Notes under the pieces: model-generated | Seen by the model: only the letters and a program-made list of their open reading frames with translations | Told to the model about the DNA's origin: nothing | Database searches by the model: none | IMG/VR virus record: IMGVR_UViG_2718218135_000005 | DNA length: 39,236 bases | Direction: 5' to 3' (one strand) | DNA from: a virus | Lineage: Duplodnaviria > Heunggongvirae > Uroviricota > Caudoviricetes | Shown here: piece after piece, positions 1 through 31,066 of the stretch | How the letters are laid out: every line of letters begins with the position of its first letter | Numbering within the stretch: the first letter of the stretch is position 1 | Position numbers and translations under genes: made by a program

Positions 1-603
1 TTAGACTTCAATCGATTCAGAGATCTCTAACGCATCATCGACTTCAATGCCCAGATAACGTACTGTGCTTTCCAGTTTCTTATGGCCTAACAGAAGTTGG
101 ATCACCCTGAGATTCTTAGTTTTCTTGTAAATCAGGTAAGGTTTTGTTCTTCTCAAGGAATGTGTACTGTAAAGCGAATCTTCGAGACCAAGTTTTGCTA
201 CCCACCTATGAAAAATTCGGTTGTATTGCCGGGTTGATATGTGTTGGTTAGTACCGACCCGAGATCGGAACAAATAGTCTTTACTGCGTAAATTGCCAAG
301 CTTTATCAATGCAGAAACAGCTTCTCTTGTCCCTTTGGTTATCTCAAATTGGACAGGGCTGCCGGTTTTCTGTTGTAGAACCGTAGCTCTGCTTGAAACA
401 GAGCTACCATATGCAACATCAGATACTTTGAGTTTGACTAGATCACAGCCTCGAAGCTTACTGTCCAAGGCCATGTTGAACAGAGCTAAATCGCGCGTTT
501 TACCTTCCAGTTCAAGTCGGATTCGGATACCCCAGATATGAGATATCTGAAGTGGTCTTTTTTGGCCTATGATACGGTCTTTGTTCCACGGTGACGTGTT
601 CAT
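1..603 (-). CDS. short tyrosine-type site-specific recombinase (phage-integrase family, catalytic domain only)
   Basis: ORF-track 202-aa product (TTG at 609 or in-frame ATG at 603); C-terminal HSLRRT ... LLGHKKLESTVRY matches the H-x-x-R ... LGH ... Y pattern of tyrosine recombinases; stop codon at window positions 1-3. Confidence 0.7.
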   Translation of the reverse strand: MNTSPWNKDRIIGQKRPLQISHIWGIRIRLELEGKTRDLALFNMALDSKLRGCDLVKLKVSDVAYGSSVSSRATVLQQKTGSPVQFEITKGTREAVSALIKLGNLRSKDYLFRSRVGTNQHISTRQYNRIFHRWVAKLGLEDSLYSTHSLRRTKPYLIYKKTKNLRVIQLLLGHKKLESTVRYLGIEVDDALEISESIEV

Positions 604-639
604 ACTCAAATCTCCTGCAATGTGGGAGATTTGAGTATG
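601..639. repeat. perfect 15-bp inverted repeat with 9-nt spacer, spanning the recombinase start codon and SD
   Basis: catactcaaatctcc (601-615) and ggagatttgagtatg (625-639) are exact reverse complements. Confidence 0.6.
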
Positions 640-998
640 GTTGTCCTTATGAGCGAGGCGCGGAAGCTCACTTTAGGGTAATCTAATTCACATGTCAGAG
701 GATTTATAAAAAGAGAATAGTGCAGATTTTAGGGATACTTACACTTGCTATGGCATACTTTTTGGGACCCCATCAGTTTAGGGATCTGAATCGCCACAGC
801 TTTGGTAGGCACCTGCTTTATGGTCACGTGCACCCGAAAATCCTGCGGGTACACATGGGTCACGAAAAGTACGAGTCTACAGAAGTTAATTTACGGTTTT
901 TTGCGCTCGATGTGGCTGCCAGCTACCAAGTCCAGTTTACACTGGATACAACTAACGCGCTGTAGCAACTGCGTGGTGGAAGCTGATTAAAGGAGATA

Positions 999-2102
999 AT
1001 GATGTTCGATGTTGACGATACTGCACCCGATACTCCCGACCCCCGTGAACTCAGTCAGGATGTGCAGGCGCTGATCAACAATGGTCTGGATTTTCTGGAT
1101 AAAGCCCGTGAAGAGTTGGAGGCCTCGAAGCCGAAGTTCTCCGTCGTCAGTTTCTGGACTGCGGTCGAGATTTTACTGAAAGTTCCGCTGGCGCACGAAC
1201 ACTGGTCGTTGGTCTGCAGCCCGAAAAAGCCAATAAAAAAGCAGGCTTACCTAGCCGGTGATTTTCAGTCGGTGACCTACGAAGAAACCCGTGAAAGGCT
1301 TAAGGACGTACTTGAAAGCCCCCTAGACAGAGAAACGGACAGTGCTTTTGATAAGGTCAGAAAGCACCGCAACCGCGTAGTTCATTTCTACCACCCCACT
1401 TTCACCGAGGCTGAACAACGTCAAATACTCAAAGAACAAGCTGACGCCTGGTTTGCCCTGAACCGGTTATTAAGGGATGAATGGAAAGTTATCTTCGGTG
1501 TCAAACATAATTGGAAGCTGGCTTTCGGTGAAACTCGTCTGATTAGGGGAAACAAATTTTATGCCGAGGTGCGGTTTAAACAGGTTAAGCCTGAACTCGA
1601 GCAGCTCTCTGAAAAGAATATTCAAATCGGTAACTGCAATGAGTGCCATCAGCATGCGACGGTAACAGGGACTGAAACGACCGGTAATGAAAACCGTAAG
1701 CTTGAAGTTACGCGGTGTAAGGTTTGCACCAGTGCTGTAAGGCAAATTACCCTAGTTTGTCCAGACTGCGAAATACCTCAATTGCTACCTGAGGGAGATA
1801 GTGATTTTGAATGCGAACACTGCGACTACACTTCGGATAGGTATAAACTGCTGGATGAGGAGTTGTTCCACAGTGTGGATGAACAGCTACTCTCCGTATT
1901 TCCTGCTGGATGTACCAATTGCATGACTCCTGAAAGCGTATGTAAATTTGGAGACGGCTATCTTTGCACTCAGTGTTTCATCTATTACACCGAGCTTCAT
2001 GTATGTGGTTGTTGCGGTCACCTGAGCGATAGCGTTCCTGAACTGAGCCATATCCGAGGATGTGAATTTTGTGATGGTGACCAACGTTATTTTGATGACT
2101 GA
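999..2102 (+). CDS. hypothetical Cys-rich protein: helical N-terminal domain with R-x4-H motif, C-terminal array of eight CxxC pairs (predicted zinc ribbons)
   Basis: 367-aa ORF with SD aggag at 991-995; RNRVVH motif in KVRKHRNRVVHFYHP; CNEC, CKVC, CPDC, CEHC, CTNC, CTQC, CGCC, CEFC in the C-terminal half. Function not recognised. Confidence 0.65.
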   Translation: MMFDVDDTAPDTPDPRELSQDVQALINNGLDFLDKAREELEASKPKFSVVSFWTAVEILLKVPLAHEHWSLVCSPKKPIKKQAYLAGDFQSVTYEETRERLKDVLESPLDRETDSAFDKVRKHRNRVVHFYHPTFTEAEQRQILKEQADAWFALNRLLRDEWKVIFGVKHNWKLAFGETRLIRGNKFYAEVRFKQVKPELEQLSEKNIQIGNCNECHQHATVTGTETTGNENRKLEVTRCKVCTSAVRQITLVCPDCEIPQLLPEGDSDFECEHCDYTSDRYKLLDEELFHSVDEQLLSVFPAGCTNCMTPESVCKFGDGYLCTQCFIYYTELHVCGCCGHLSDSVPELSHIRGCEFCDGDQRYFDD

Positions 2103-2484
2103 ATTACCATACATAATCTAGGCTCTTCAGGGATGGGTTGGACAGTCCGCTCCTGGCACATAGCAGTCCTAGAGACACTGGCGTAAAGCCATGGAGGATC
2201 GGTGGGAGGAGGTAAAAATCCTCTCATGCAAAAAATACGCAAAATCGATAACAGTTGGAAATCATTCAATACTCGCACTATCGGAAGTTCACCAGCCAGT
2301 CGTAGCACGTTCTTGCATACGACGTGGCTACGGTCTCAACTCCGTCCCCCACCAATCATGATTGGGCAGTACCAGTACAGCACTAGTAAAAACTGGAAAT
2401 AAGCAGTCTCAGCAAAATACCGGCCAGACGGTGAGAAGACAAAAAAGATACGCAAAGTAACCGCGGCCCTTAGTGACATGAAAT

Positions 2485-2504
2485 CCCGCTATACGGGCTT
2501 TTTT
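2485..2504 (+). terminator. weak terminator-like hairpin plus T6 run
   Basis: cccg-ctata-cggg followed by cttttttgt; only a 4-bp GC stem. Confidence 0.3.
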
Positions 2505-2579
2505 GTATCTGCACACGATTGATTATTAGGTCCGTATAGCTAATAGTGGTCTTAACCTACATATAGAATCAGAGACTTT

Positions 2580-3275
2580 ATGAAAAAGGAAATACTCAAG
2601 GCTCTTTGCCCTACATGCGGTGGGTTACGTAACTGCACTGTGCATGGGAAGCTAACCACTAGCTGGGAGGATTCCCAATATCCAGTTTATGGGTACCATT
2701 ACCATCACCTACTCCAATGCAATGGCTGTGATACTGTCTTCTATCACCACAACGAACACTTCAGTGAGCATACTACCCACGAATATCGTGATGGTGAATT
2801 TGTAGAAACGCCTATAGATATGATCACTACCTATCCTGCCGCTGAAACATTTCAAGCTCCGATATGGTTATCCAAGCTTGAATCAGTTGATCGTCAGCTC
2901 TTTCAAATATTTAATGAAATGTATTCTTCATATACTTCTGACCATTTCATTCTTTCGTCCATCGGTTTACGGACGATTTTTGATCGAACTGCTGAACTGT
3001 TACAAATTCACCCCGGTTTGCCGCTTGGTGAAAAAGTTGAAAAATTAAAACAAGATGGAGTCATAGGCGACACTGAGGCATGCGTTATATCTTCAGTAAT
3101 TGATGCAGGAAACGCCGCCGCACATCGCAGTTGGAGCCCGAATAAAAGTGAGTTCGAACAAATGCTAGAAGCTATAGAAAGTTTTGTCCAAAGAACTATC
3201 TTGGGCAAAAAATCACTTGAACATATAACCAAACAACTCCCACCTCGGGTTACAAGACCTAAAAATAGTGCATAA
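2580..3275 (+). CDS. hypothetical protein: N-terminal CxxC...CxxC zinc ribbon plus helical C-terminal domain (possibly DUF4145/HEPN-like, from memory)
   Basis: 231-aa ORF; CPTCGG...CNGCD near N-terminus, His-rich stretch YHYHH, C-terminal VIDAGNAAAHRSW motif; AT-rich by eye. Confidence 0.65.
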   Translation: MKKEILKALCPTCGGLRNCTVHGKLTTSWEDSQYPVYGYHYHHLLQCNGCDTVFYHHNEHFSEHTTHEYRDGEFVETPIDMITTYPAAETFQAPIWLSKLESVDRQLFQIFNEMYSSYTSDHFILSSIGLRTIFDRTAELLQIHPGLPLGEKVEKLKQDGVIGDTEACVISSVIDAGNAAAHRSWSPNKSEFEQMLEAIESFVQRTILGKKSLEHITKQLPPRVTRPKNSA

Positions 3276-3301
3276 TCCGCGATCATCAATGTGGCGTAAG
3301 G

Positions 3302-3858
3302 CTATGGTTTACTTGCTACAGGGAATTTTTTATACACCGTTGAAATACCCAGATCATAAATCAGTGCGACTTGCTGCTGATATATTCCCGATTCAATCAA
3401 CCTGCCAGCCTGCCCCCATTGTTCTACTGTCAGCTTTGGCTTTCGCCCACCGTTCCTCCCTTCTTGTCGTGCTGCGGCAAAGCCGCCCTAGTACGTTCGA
3501 CAATAAACTCTCGCTCCATTTCAGCCAGGGCACCCATCACATGAAAGAAAAAACGCCCTATCGGCGTGCTGGTATCAATAGCATCCGTCAGGCTGCGAAA
3601 ATTAACGCCACGTTCGCGCAACTCCTCAACCAGAATGACCAGATGCCGCATACTACCCCCCAGCCGATCCAGCTTCCAGACAACCAGAGTGTCACCTGCC
3701 GATAATGTCCTGAGCAGTTTTTTCAGTCCCGGCCTTTCGGACTTTGTACCGCTTATCTTGTCTTCAAAAATCAGCTCGCATCCTGCACAGTTCAGCGCAT
3801 TACGTTGTAGATCTGTGTTCTGGTCATTTGTTGATACGCGTACATAGCCAATAAGCAT
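3302..3858 (-). pseudogene. Pin/Gin/Hin-family serine DNA invertase, interrupted by a single-base frameshift
   Basis: N-terminal MLIGYVRVSTNDQNTDLQRNAL...VVWKLDRLG...GRFFFHVMGALAEMERE is a serine-recombinase catalytic domain and stops at 3430; the HTH tail (GGRKPKLTVEQWGQAGRLIESGIYQQQVALIYDLGISTVYKKFPVAS) reads in another frame over 3302-3457. Confidence 0.7.
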
Positions 3859-3884
3859 GGTAGATCCCTCTGACAAAAGCAGGA

Positions 3885-4436
3885 ATGATGCCATCTGCTC
3901 GTTATTTCTGCATTTTCATAAACGTTGGTTTGGGAGAAGGTTCGGCATTACCCGTTGGCGTGCCTGTTCCGTGGCCTTCCACCACTCCGCCAACAGGCTG
4001 GCTGAAATGCAACGGTGCGGCTTTTTCTGCTGAAGCATACCCGGAACTGGCAAAGGCTTATCCGACAAATAAATTGCCTGATTTACGTGGTGAGTTTATT
4101 CGTGGCTGGGATGACGGGCGTGGAGTGGATAGCGGTCGTACTTTATTAACGAATCAAGAGCATGCAGTAATTTCTCATAATCATGGAATACCTACAAAAG
4201 TGGGGTCAGTTACTAATATCCCGTATGGAATAGAACAGGTTCTATCTGATGAAACCATTTTTTCATCAGCAAAAACAGTTGGTGTGGATTACTGGTCTAA
4301 CAGTGAAAGAGTTTTTACTTATACCACTGGTGGAAGAAATGGTGCTGAATCAGTGAGTTCACCTGATGCCTCCTCTTTAATTAAAGAAACCAGACCACGG
4401 AACCTGGCATTTGCGTATATCGTGAGGGCTGCATAA
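3885..4436 (+). CDS. alternative tail-fibre C-terminal (variable) domain, unfused and promoterless in this orientation
   Basis: ORF runs through the left crossover site; product has GWLKCNGAAFSAEAYPELAKAYP, a tail-collar-type fibre tip motif; the annotated ATG is probably not a true start. Confidence 0.6.
   Translation: MMPSARYFCIFINVGLGEGSALPVGVPVPWPSTTPPTGWLKCNGAAFSAEAYPELAKAYPTNKLPDLRGEFIRGWDDGRGVDSGRTLLTNQEHAVISHNHGIPTKVGSVTNIPYGIEQVLSDETIFSSAKTVGVDYWSNSERVFTYTTGGRNGAESVSSPDASSLIKETRPRNLAFAYIVRAA
3913..3938. repeat. invertase crossover site (gix/pix/hix-like), left end of invertible segment
   Basis: TTTTCATAAACGTTGGTTTGGGAGAA fits the 26-bp TTxTCxxAAACC-NN-GGTTTxxGAxAA pattern of Gin/Hin/Pin sites. 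Confidence 0.55.
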
Positions 4437-26206: not shown

Positions 26207-26953
26207 ATGCGACATAATTTTTCTAAAGACACTATAAAAAAATTAGCAGAGCGGGCAGCATTCATTTGTTCAAACCCTTCATGCCCTAGATTGACCATTG
26301 GCCCATCAATTGATGGCAATAAATCAATCAAGACAGGAGTTGCTGCTCACATATGTGCAGCATCTCCTGATGGCCCACGCTATGACATGTCACAATCAGA
26401 AACAGAAAGGAAGTCAATTAACAATGGCATATGGCTGTGTGCTACTTGTTCTGTATTAATAGATAAGAATCAGGGGCTAGACTATCCGGCACCTGTATTA
26501 AGAAAATGGAAAAAAGATCATGAAAGCCTTATAAGCTCCTGTCTTGAAGGTTCGATTAATATTACCTTCGATGCTTTGAAATATATTCAACAGCATGATG
26601 AAAGAAATCTGGCAAAAAAGATTATAAATGAATTGGATGATAAAGGGGCTTTGTTCGTAGAATATCATCTTGAAAACCCCTGTTTTGTTGCCGAATCACT
26701 CAAAGAGTTAAGAACATGTTTGACCTCTTTGCTTTCTCAAATCCCAGATGAATCACCTCTATTTATCGTTTGCAAGTCAATTCGAGAAGCATGCCGTTAT
26801 TATATGAACAACACTTCTAAAGACGCAGGGATTAAAGAGTTAGAATTTTCGTTGGGAGCTGTCAGAAAAATCGTAGGTATCAACGTTAAAAGAATATCAG
26901 AAACCTACGGGGTTAAACCTAGCCCACAATTATCTACCATAATGCCAGATTAA
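26207..26953 (+). CDS. hypothetical HNH-like zinc-finger protein with uncharacterised C-terminal domain
   Basis: CSNPSCPRL ... AAHICAASPDGPRY ... NNGIWLCATCSVLIDKN resembles an HNH motif; AT-rich by eye; antisense between Q and holin. Confidence 0.5.
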   Translation: MRHNFSKDTIKKLAERAAFICSNPSCPRLTIGPSIDGNKSIKTGVAAHICAASPDGPRYDMSQSETERKSINNGIWLCATCSVLIDKNQGLDYPAPVLRKWKKDHESLISSCLEGSINITFDALKYIQQHDERNLAKKIINELDDKGALFVEYHLENPCFVAESLKELRTCLTSLLSQIPDESPLFIVCKSIREACRYYMNNTSKDAGIKELEFSLGAVRKIVGINVKRISETYGVKPSPQLSTIMPD

Positions 26954-29599: not shown

Positions 29600-29922
29600 A
29601 CTTTCAGGCCCCTCTCATGTAACCAGTGGGCTGCACGCAGCCTGGCGTTTTCCTCACCGGCAAGCAGTGAGCGGATAATCCCGACCGCCTCGCTGTCGTC
29701 GTCCTTCACCGCGGTATGAAGCGTTATCCCCCGGGCCACGCCACGCTTTATCGTGATGACGCCTTTTTTCTCCAGCGCACGAAGATGCTCCACCGCTGCA
29801 TTCACCGAACGGTATCCCAGCATGGTTGCCACCTCCTGATTGGTTGGCGGGAAACCACGTTCTTTCTGATAAGAAATCAGCATATCCAGCACCTGCTGCT
29901 GGCATTGAGTTAACGTCGTCAT
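29596..29922 (-). CDS. LexA-type winged-helix DNA-binding protein
   Basis: QQQVLDMLISYQKERGFPPTNQEVATMLGYRSVNAAVEHLRALEKKGVI resembles the LexA N-terminal DNA-binding domain. Confidence 0.5.
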   Translation of the reverse strand: MTTLTQCQQQVLDMLISYQKERGFPPTNQEVATMLGYRSVNAAVEHLRALEKKGVITIKRGVARGITLHTAVKDDDSEAVGIIRSLLAGEENARLRAAHWLHERGLKV

Positions 29923-30572
29923 GCCGCCATCTCCCTGACCAGTTTTTCCGCCTGCTGACGAACCTGCTCCAGAAACGCCTCACCACATGCCTCAAGTTCA
30001 TCGCGCCCGATGTAGCTGATTGCCGGTCCATTCCAGGTCTTATCGAAAACAGCAATAGCACCAGCGAAGAAAGCGCCTGTCGGCACCTGCTTCTCATCCT
30101 TCGGGATAAACCAGGCAGGCAGTTCAAAACCAATACGCCCGCGAATAAAAGCAATATGATCTGCATCTTCCGGCCACCACACTTCGCTGGTGGCAGCTTT
30201 GATCAGGAAAACATAGCGCCCGCCCTTATCACGCATGGCACTGGCATGCTTCATGATGTAACGCATGCCGGTGATGTATTGCCCCTCATGCTGACTGGCG
30301 CGGCTGTATGGGGGATTACCAAAGGCAGCACCTTTTAGCTCCGCAAGACGTTCTGACCAGTCATGCGCCAGCGCGTTGTCTTCCGCCGTGTAATACGCAG
30401 CACATTTGGCGTTATCACCGTCAGTGAACAGATCCAGAACAAACGGGCCAAACAGGGTGTTAATTCCCCAGAAAATGTTATCCGGCGTGCGCCACTGATC
30501 GCCCACTTCCTTCAGTTCATGGGCTGGTTTGTTCCGCAGTTCGACCAGCGCCTGGCAATATTTATTACTCAT
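29919..30572 (-). CDS. phage N6-adenine DNA methyltransferase (orphan, Dam-like)
   Basis: FGNPPYSRA catalytic motif; start taken at MSNKYCQ (ORF track extends to 30605). Confidence 0.7.
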   Translation of the reverse strand: MSNKYCQALVELRNKPAHELKEVGDQWRTPDNIFWGINTLFGPFVLDLFTDGDNAKCAAYYTAEDNALAHDWSERLAELKGAAFGNPPYSRASQHEGQYITGMRYIMKHASAMRDKGGRYVFLIKAATSEVWWPEDADHIAFIRGRIGFELPAWFIPKDEKQVPTGAFFAGAIAVFDKTWNGPAISYIGRDELEACGEAFLEQVRQQAEKLVREMAA

Positions 30573-31066
30573 TAAGCCCCCACGTAATTCCCTGACAGAT
30601 ACCACTCATCACCCGATGCAGCGCGCTTGCTGCTTTTCCGTAAGCACCGCTCACGACGCGCCAGAAAATTGTTTCGTTCTGGCTGGGAGTGGCTTTCACG
30701 GAATGCCGCCATCCACACCGTTGCAGCACGACGGTATAAGCCCCTGGACTCCAGTTCTTCAGCCTGGCGGGTCAGGCACAAAATCTCCCGCGGGTCGTTA
30801 GTGCCGACATAGAAATTGCGCACAGGTCTGGTTTCACGAACTGGTTGTGGTTCCGGATCCTGCGCTCTCTCAGTCAGGCGCGGGAAATGTCTGTGTGTAT
30901 CTCCTTCACAACGGTGAGCCACACGCCCACTCTGACGTAACTTGCTTGCTGACTGCAGAACGCGCTGCCGTGAGTAACCTGCAAAAGCATCCGCAATGTC
31001 TCCGGAAGTACAGCCCGGATGGGCTTCAATGAATTTCTGAACGTCATTCAAAAGACTCATGCTCAC
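30572..31066 (-). CDS. hypothetical regulator (PerC/ANR-like?)
   Basis: 164-aa product with RRAATVWMAAFRES helix; weak family guess. Confidence 0.35.
   Translation of the reverse strand: MSMSLLNDVQKFIEAHPGCTSGDIADAFAGYSRQRVLQSASKLRQSGRVAHRCEGDTHRHFPRLTERAQDPEPQPVRETRPVRNFYVGTNDPREILCLTRQAEELESRGLYRRAATVWMAAFRESHSQPERNNFLARRERCLRKSSKRAASGDEWYLSGNYVGA

Follow-up and report, generated by a model that had tools for sequence, protein, structure and literature searches.

Near one end of a 39,236-nucleotide stretch of DNA from a virus of the class Caudoviricetes (IMG/VR record IMGVR_UViG_2718218135_000005; the window, below, means this whole stretch), two genes encoding zinc-ribbon proteins with HEPN domains lie next to each other on the plus strand. 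The list of open reading frames (ORFs) places gene 1 at 999-2102 and gene 2 at 2580-3275, 477 bp apart, and Pfam identifies a short tyrosine recombinase on one side of them and a tail-fiber invertase of the resolvase type past gene 2. An earlier note on this DNA had described this same layout of genes and flanks, and had proposed the two genes as a candidate undescribed two-gene defense module, perhaps acting by abortive infection or as a toxin-antitoxin system. We favor a different explanation, at a probability of roughly three in four: these are two independent single-gene HEPN anti-phage systems, side by side by accident at the cargo end of a composite element whose integration site is tRNA-Thr.

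Gene 1 encodes 367 aa when read from the ATG at 999; the RefSeq protein starts at the second ATG, at 1002, and has 366 aa. Its N-terminal part (residues ~17-166; 1047-1496, plus strand) is a DUF3644-type HEPN domain, whose fold was confirmed by an AlphaFold2 (AF2) model, and carries the Rx4H motif RNRVVH at residues 124-129 (nt 1368-1385). The C-terminal part is an array of exactly eight CxxC pairs (1635-2072, plus strand), at residues 213, 240, 254, 272, 305, 323, 336 and 355 and spanning 213-358, which corresponds to about four Cys4 zinc ribbons in a region modeled as beta-rich. Both the motif and the eight pairs had been pointed out in the earlier note, and both are borne out by conservation: R124, N125, H129 and all 16 cysteines do not vary among 39 homologues with identities as low as 45%, marking them as selected features and not products of chance. 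NCBIfam returned nothing meaningful for the protein of gene 1 or of gene 2.

Gene 1 turned out to be described already. It matches the PADLOC HEC-08 model (PDLC04162) over essentially its full length (E = 1e-173, 575.5 bits; residues 12-366 against profile positions 6-357 of 358), its N-terminus matches the PADLOC DUF3644 model (2e-71), and it is identical to Escherichia coli WP_001313577.1 at 364 of 366 residues (99.5%), the differences being D13A and S106R. HEC-08 was introduced as one protein in which a DUF3644/HEPN domain at the N-terminus is combined with C-terminal domains resembling zinc ribbons (Payne et al. 2024, bioRxiv 10.1101/2024.01.29.577857). That study tested nine HEC candidates against BASEL and classic coliphages, and seven of them, all but HEC-01 and HEC-09, lowered plaquing. 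The HEC-08 construct tested there was WP_001313577.1 from E. coli ECOR52 (supplementary table, 10.1101/2024.01.29.577857), and mutation of the histidine of its Rx4-6H motif, H128, abolished defense (10.1101/2024.01.29.577857); numbered from the RefSeq start, the motif histidine of gene 1 is likewise H128. DefensePredictor (DeWeirdt et al., Science 2026, PMC13092281) counts the same accession, as clone HEP2 and under the name DS-38, with its validated systems, and HEC-08/DS-38 was cloned as a lone gene (10.1101/2024.01.29.577857; PMC13092281). Given the full-length match to the model and the near-identity to the tested protein, gene 1 is, as judged from its sequence, the already described and tested single-gene anti-phage protein HEC-08/DS-38, two of 366 residues away from the tested construct, and the word "undescribed" no longer applies to it. 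The defense function suggested in the earlier note is thus published for a protein that matches gene 1 at 99.5% identity; what falls away is the idea of a cooperating pair. DS-38 was also considered as an identity for gene 2 and was ruled out, DS-38 being WP_001313577.1 and hence gene 1. NCBI names many proteins of the HEC-08 family "hsdR", a propagated misannotation, as the domains of a type I restriction subunit are absent from them. What gene 1 contributes here is one further location of a validated system and a record of this misnaming.

Are the two genes one system or two? A survey of 5,426 complete E. coli genomes found gene 1 in 343 of them and gene 2 in 34, but the 2.8-kb arrangement that holds both is found in just two, strains S56 and DETEC-P61; one further genome carries both genes, 621 kb apart. 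Alignments show that two unrelated homology blocks meet between the genes, with a junction at 2165-2229 at which no attachment (att) site was found. Positions 1-2164 are 99.6% identical to a genomic island of E. coli Nissle 1917, where unrelated genes follow gene 1 and gene 2 is absent, and positions 2230-3938 are 96-98% identical to dusA-integrated prophages. The three E. coli dusA prophages that we inspected share the order int, DinI, gene 2, invertase, tail fibers, without gene 1, and their gene 2 protein is identical to the one encoded here (WP_001514810.1). No HEC-08-like gene occurs in the inspected neighborhoods of gene 2 homologues. Gene 2 is the native cargo gene of the prophage, and its adjacency to gene 1 is an accidental product of recent recombination. 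The rarity of the arrangement, the junction of the blocks, the 477-bp gap and the changing neighbors of gene 2 together speak strongly against the genes forming a module.

Gene 2 is a stand-alone gene for a 231-aa protein that joins a zinc ribbon to a DUF4145/HEPN domain. It matches Pfam DUF4145 (8.8e-10; 39 bits, with a curated cut-off of 23.1) and phrog_1305 (5.3e-43), and its AF2 model (pLDDT 95.5) consists of a beta-rich N-terminal domain, residues 1-85, which holds four cysteines (2580-2834, plus strand), a linker, and a helical HEPN domain, residues 97-219 (2868-3236, plus strand). CPTC at residue 10 and CNGC at residue 47 supply the Cys4 ribbon (C10, C13, C47 and C50), and GNAAAH lies at residues 177-182 (nt 3108-3125) in the HEPN domain. 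In 90 diverse relatives C10, C47, R131, H182 and W185 are invariant, C13 and C50 are kept in 89, and R183 in 86. The N-terminal ribbon and the DUF4145 likeness that had been read from the letters are thereby substantiated, as is the presence of HEPN domains in both proteins, by the confirmed fold for gene 1 and the Pfam match for gene 2; the structure models, proposed earlier as a check, give a HEPN region and a beta-rich cysteine region in each.

The family of gene 2 is very large, with 2,696 clusters at 50% identity for E<=1e-3 and 1,393 for E<=1e-10, and is absent from the PADLOC v2 catalogue. Homologues about 45-70% identical occur in Enterobacter, Citrobacter, Atlantibacter, Rahnella and one metagenome, with 40% identity reached in Burkholderia. 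When 50,697 phage records were searched by tblastn with gene 2, none matched, despite the PHROG match; judging by that collection, the family appears to reside in prophages and plasmids rather than in sequenced phages. Plasmids of Yersinia pestis of about 100-140 kb (hits H126-H149) encode a homologue of 41% identity for which "DUF4145 protein" is the sole annotation. The inspected homologues lie at prophage ends or in defense-like surroundings, and their neighbors vary, including an integrase, UmuDC, DinI, gtr genes, AbiTii, Mrr, a Gabija-like pair and RelE/ParE, with no constant partner.

How might the two proteins act? The protein of gene 1 is best pictured as a latent HEPN RNase whose zinc-ribbon array would sense or regulate, with the dependence on the histidine being the published part of this picture. 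For gene 2 we draw on RAZR/PD-T7-4, described as "Zn finger-HEPN" (Vassallo 2022) and encoded by an ORF of 661 nt, or ~219 aa (RRL46918.1; from the coordinates of Vassallo 2022). RAZR is an abortive-infection RNase, non-toxic when overproduced (Zhang et al., Nature 2026, PMC13017515), that becomes active once its zinc-finger domain has bound phage proteins that form rings (portal, Erf-like Gp77), 24 copies assembling around the ring; residues R146 and H154 of its DUF4145 domain are essential, and R146A abolishes defense (PMC13017515). By analogy, the gene 2 protein would be harmless in uninfected cells until its zinc-ribbon domain recognized a phage protein, upon which its HEPN dimers or oligomers would be reorganized into an active RNase that would cut RNA, stop translation and abort the infection. 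Catalysis would probably proceed through a non-canonical site, H182 with R183 and/or R131. Taking fold, conservation and context together, we lean moderately toward gene 2 being a defense RNase.

Several observations weigh against this reading. The mechanism of HEC-08 is established for the histidine alone, and one of the two papers on it is a preprint. A literature search found no paper mentioning the gene 2 accession and no experimental work on its family, the evidence from gene 2 neighbors is qualitative and not an enrichment statistic, and PHROGs labels the family "DNA binding protein". The residue eight positions before the conserved histidine (H-8) is T, V, I, A or L, and never arginine, in all 90 gene 2 relatives, so that catalysis in this clade may differ or be absent. 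The parallel with RAZR is also not reflected in direct similarity: gene 2 does not match the PADLOC PD-T7-4 model (PDLC04109, 211 positions) at E<=1, none of its 90 relatives does so at E<=0.01, and the profiles A1, A2, A3 and A5, searched against the PDB, never reached the RAZR chain, even though entries 9Y6U and 9Y9C were included, as was established by a query with Gp77. With gene 2 alone as the query there was likewise no RAZR match in the PDB, and the protein of locus L007 found no match there at all.

Could gene 2 still be a true member of the RAZR/PD-T7-4 family, polymerizing around ring-shaped phage proteins such as the portal or an Erf-like recombinase? The domain order is the same and the size similar (231 aa against ~219 aa), the Cys4 ribbon, the DUF4145 HEPN domain and the conserved histidine are all present, and the zinc-finger domain is reported to be the most variable part of the RAZR family (PMC13017515). 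Profiles also provide an indirect connection. A second family of zinc-ribbon (ZnR)-DUF4145 proteins, A3, aligns with the gene 2 family over both domains (hhalign 99.8%, E 1.9e-28), and 16 of 36 A3 members match the PD-T7-4 model weakly, with a best value of 1.9e-4; weak matches of this kind, from distant ZnR-DUF4145 proteins, indicate that the model is responsive. R-x7-H is invariant in A3 (R178...H186), with the same spacing as R146/H154 of RAZR, and its arginine falls in the alignment column of H-8 in the gene 2 family. One member of A3, a distant family, adjoins a Lit gene. Gene 2 would thus be linked to RAZR only transitively, through A3. With no match to PD-T7-4 or to the RAZR chain, a link that is transitive only and the arginine at H-8 missing, the profile comparisons (membership being tested through the PADLOC PD-T7-4 model, not the RRL46918.1 sequence) place gene 2 outside the RAZR family as currently modeled, in a distinct clade, and we regard true membership as unlikely. 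Gene 2 is a divergent member of a known zinc-finger-HEPN kind; zinc-ribbon fusions of DUF4145, and a family overlapping DUF3644 with ZnR fusions, were already listed by Anantharaman et al.

Somewhat less likely again is that the HEPN domain of gene 2 is catalytically dead and that the protein serves the prophage as a nucleic-acid-binding or regulatory accessory, not as an immune RNase. The loss of the canonical arginine across the clade would fit, as would the PHROGs label, and Anantharaman et al. list DUF4145-like families that have the histidine and lack the arginine, besides non-catalytic HEPN relatives (MtlR). However, the invariance of H182, R131 and W185 and the near-invariance of R183 extend across relatives with ~30% identity, which points to a maintained site; the gene sits in cargo slots beside abortive-infection, restriction-modification and toxin-antitoxin genes and not in regulatory modules; and the PHROG label is itself only a prediction. 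Returning to the favored reading of two independent defense genes, we advance one extension of it tentatively, as a possibility that we rate well below even odds: gene 2 may stand for a large clade of zinc-ribbon-HEPN immunity proteins, borne by prophages and so far uncatalogued, that has lost the canonical arginine, adopted another catalytic arrangement, and may sense non-ring triggers through an enlarged beta-rich zinc domain.

A single cooperating defense or abortive-infection module made of both genes is very improbable. The two genes are adjacent on the same strand, both encode HEPN domains and zinc ribbons, both lie within one att-bounded element, and defense genes do cluster; yet against the counts and the two homology blocks given above these likenesses carry little weight, the 477-bp gap holds foreign phage-derived DNA, a near-identical copy of gene 1 defends alone, and homologues of gene 2 keep variable company. 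The least probable proposal, that a HEPN-type toxin-antitoxin system is formed by the two genes together or by one of them alone, draws on HepT/MntA-type HEPN toxins being the closest solved folds, but the genes have neither an MNT nucleotidyltransferase nor a small antitoxin ORF associated with them (neither the ORF list nor Pfam shows an MNT ORF or domain in window 1-3900), RAZR is reported as non-toxic when overproduced (PMC13017515), HEC-08/DS-38 was cloned alone, and both published relatives act as single genes.

The surroundings of the genes fit two blocks brought together in one integrated element. A 56-bp repeat of the 3' part of tRNA-Thr lies ~1.95 kb left of the window start (L001 9396-9451), and its position puts an HNH_2-domain protein, the short recombinase, genes 1 and 2 and the prophage inside one att-bounded composite element. 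In Nissle 1917 a conserved 2.16-kb block holds gene 1 together with the short tyrosine recombinase (1-603/609, minus strand; 200-202 aa; Pfam Phage_integrase 1.6e-19). The remaining E. coli matches listed start at window position 600, and a site-specific integrase is annotated under the match. Directly upstream of gene 1, at 720-965 (plus strand), is a remnant of a tyrosine recombinase C-terminus, recognized by weak Phage_integrase/XerD-type matches over residues 25-55. Window 1-2164 comprises a FimB/XerC-like short recombinase, this integrase remnant and HEC-08, and the island of Nissle 1917 contains this block in full. A perfect 15-nt inverted repeat (CATACTCAAATCTCC / GGAGATTTGAGTATG) at 601-639, with 19 pairs in a hairpin scan, overlaps the start codon and ribosome-binding site of the short recombinase and may serve as an operator, as a hairpin affecting translation or as a site of recombination. 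The idea that the recombinase drives an invertible promoter switch was considered and rejected, as no inverted repeats flank 610-998 and there is only the palindrome at the recombinase start.

On the other side, the tail-fiber invertase (3302-3858, minus strand; Resolvase 1.1e-46 for the ORF at 3430-3894) is annotated in RefSeq as "recombinase family protein, frameshifted". Of the three dusA prophage copies inspected, two likewise have it annotated as frameshifted and one has it intact; tail-fiber switching is probably frozen in this prophage.

The native upstream region of gene 2 (2230-2579, plus strand) is prophage-derived. It contains a weak hairpin followed by a T-run at ~2485-2505, but a promoter and terminator scan found nothing exceeding the shuffled expectation, and an Rfam search of intergenic DNA for non-coding RNAs found no family at threshold, the best being a CssrB-like match with E 0.15 and 22.5 bits against a gathering score of 76. 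This sub-threshold match to the CssrB small RNA spans 2301-2424 on the minus strand. About 100 bp of the region, 2230-2338, recur at 89-91% identity in HK97, HK106 and many Stx phages, in unannotated DNA close to their att side or ends, and RefSeq annotates 2234-2314 (minus strand) as a "capsid protein" pseudogene fragment.

The composite element carries other genes of possible interest. A 454-aa protein with an HNH_2 domain (L001 9826-11193, minus strand; Pfam 9e-09), ~0.2-1.6 kb left of the window start and between the left tRNA-Thr att repeat and the short recombinase, gives weak PADLOC matches to type II HNH restriction endonucleases; it resembles McrA of e14 in position. In the late-regulation and lysis region of the prophage, a 248-aa ORF at 26207-26950 (plus strand), opposite in strand to its neighbors, matches the PADLOC candidate PDC-M68A over its first 130 residues (7.5e-27) and also CBASS-type endonuclease effector and SAVED_HNH models (~1e-19 to 1e-21), and may be another cargo or defense gene. 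The early region of the prophage encodes an orphan type II DNA methyltransferase at 29919-30602 (minus strand; PADLOC MTase_II 2.8e-157), which is probably an anti-restriction methylase.

These results carry a caution, namely that two similar-looking defense genes can come to adjoin each other in the cargo slot of a prophage through a recent accident of recombination, without forming a system. They also single out gene 2 as a cheap and well-defined candidate: it is a lone gene of 0.7 kb, comes with its own upstream region and has a structure model of high confidence.

How do the locus and its two proteins compare with known systems? In e14 the accessory immunity gene mcrA lies next to pin, between the tail-fiber invertase and the end of the element. 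The window locus is the same kind of slot with other genes in place, and the term "cargo slot" used in the earlier note is a fair description of accessory genes at the end of an integrated element. Gene 1 shares with HEC-08/DS-38 the N-terminal DUF3644/HEPN domain with Rx4H, the C-terminal zinc ribbons and the single-gene form; it differs by D13A and S106R and in its setting, a tRNA-Thr-integrated composite element beside a short recombinase, and is not embedded in an Hma system. The HepT/MntA-type HEPN toxin of Shewanella (SO_3166, PDB 5YEP) and the minimal HEPN protein 2HSB share only ~10-14% identity with the proteins studied here, and genes 1 and 2 differ from such toxins by their zinc-ribbon fusions and by having no MNT antitoxin partner. 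Ishtar anti-plasmid proteins (bioRxiv 10.64898/2026.07.06.735840), whose activity was shown against RP4 conjugation, resemble both genes in being single proteins in which a DUF3644 or DUF4145 HEPN domain is fused to a second domain, in their case one of unknown function, and in lying near defense genes and in mobile elements (10.64898/2026.07.06.735840); compared by description only, they have the HEPN domain at the N-terminus and a C-terminal beta/alpha domain rather than Cys4 ribbons.

Gene 2 and RAZR have in common an N-terminal Cys4 zinc ribbon, a linker, a C-terminal divergent HEPN domain of the DUF4145 type with a conserved histidine, and a length of ~220-230 aa, and probably also share the logic of an abortive-infection RNase triggered by a phage protein. 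They differ in that the N-terminal domain of gene 2 is larger, at 85 aa, with long beta-hairpins, and that its clade lacks an equivalent of R146, as judged by the R-x7-H spacing, and has a conserved arginine after the histidine instead. If our reading is correct, the principle of RAZR, a zinc-finger sensor joined to a latent HEPN RNase, would extend to a clade without the arginine that is essential in RAZR.

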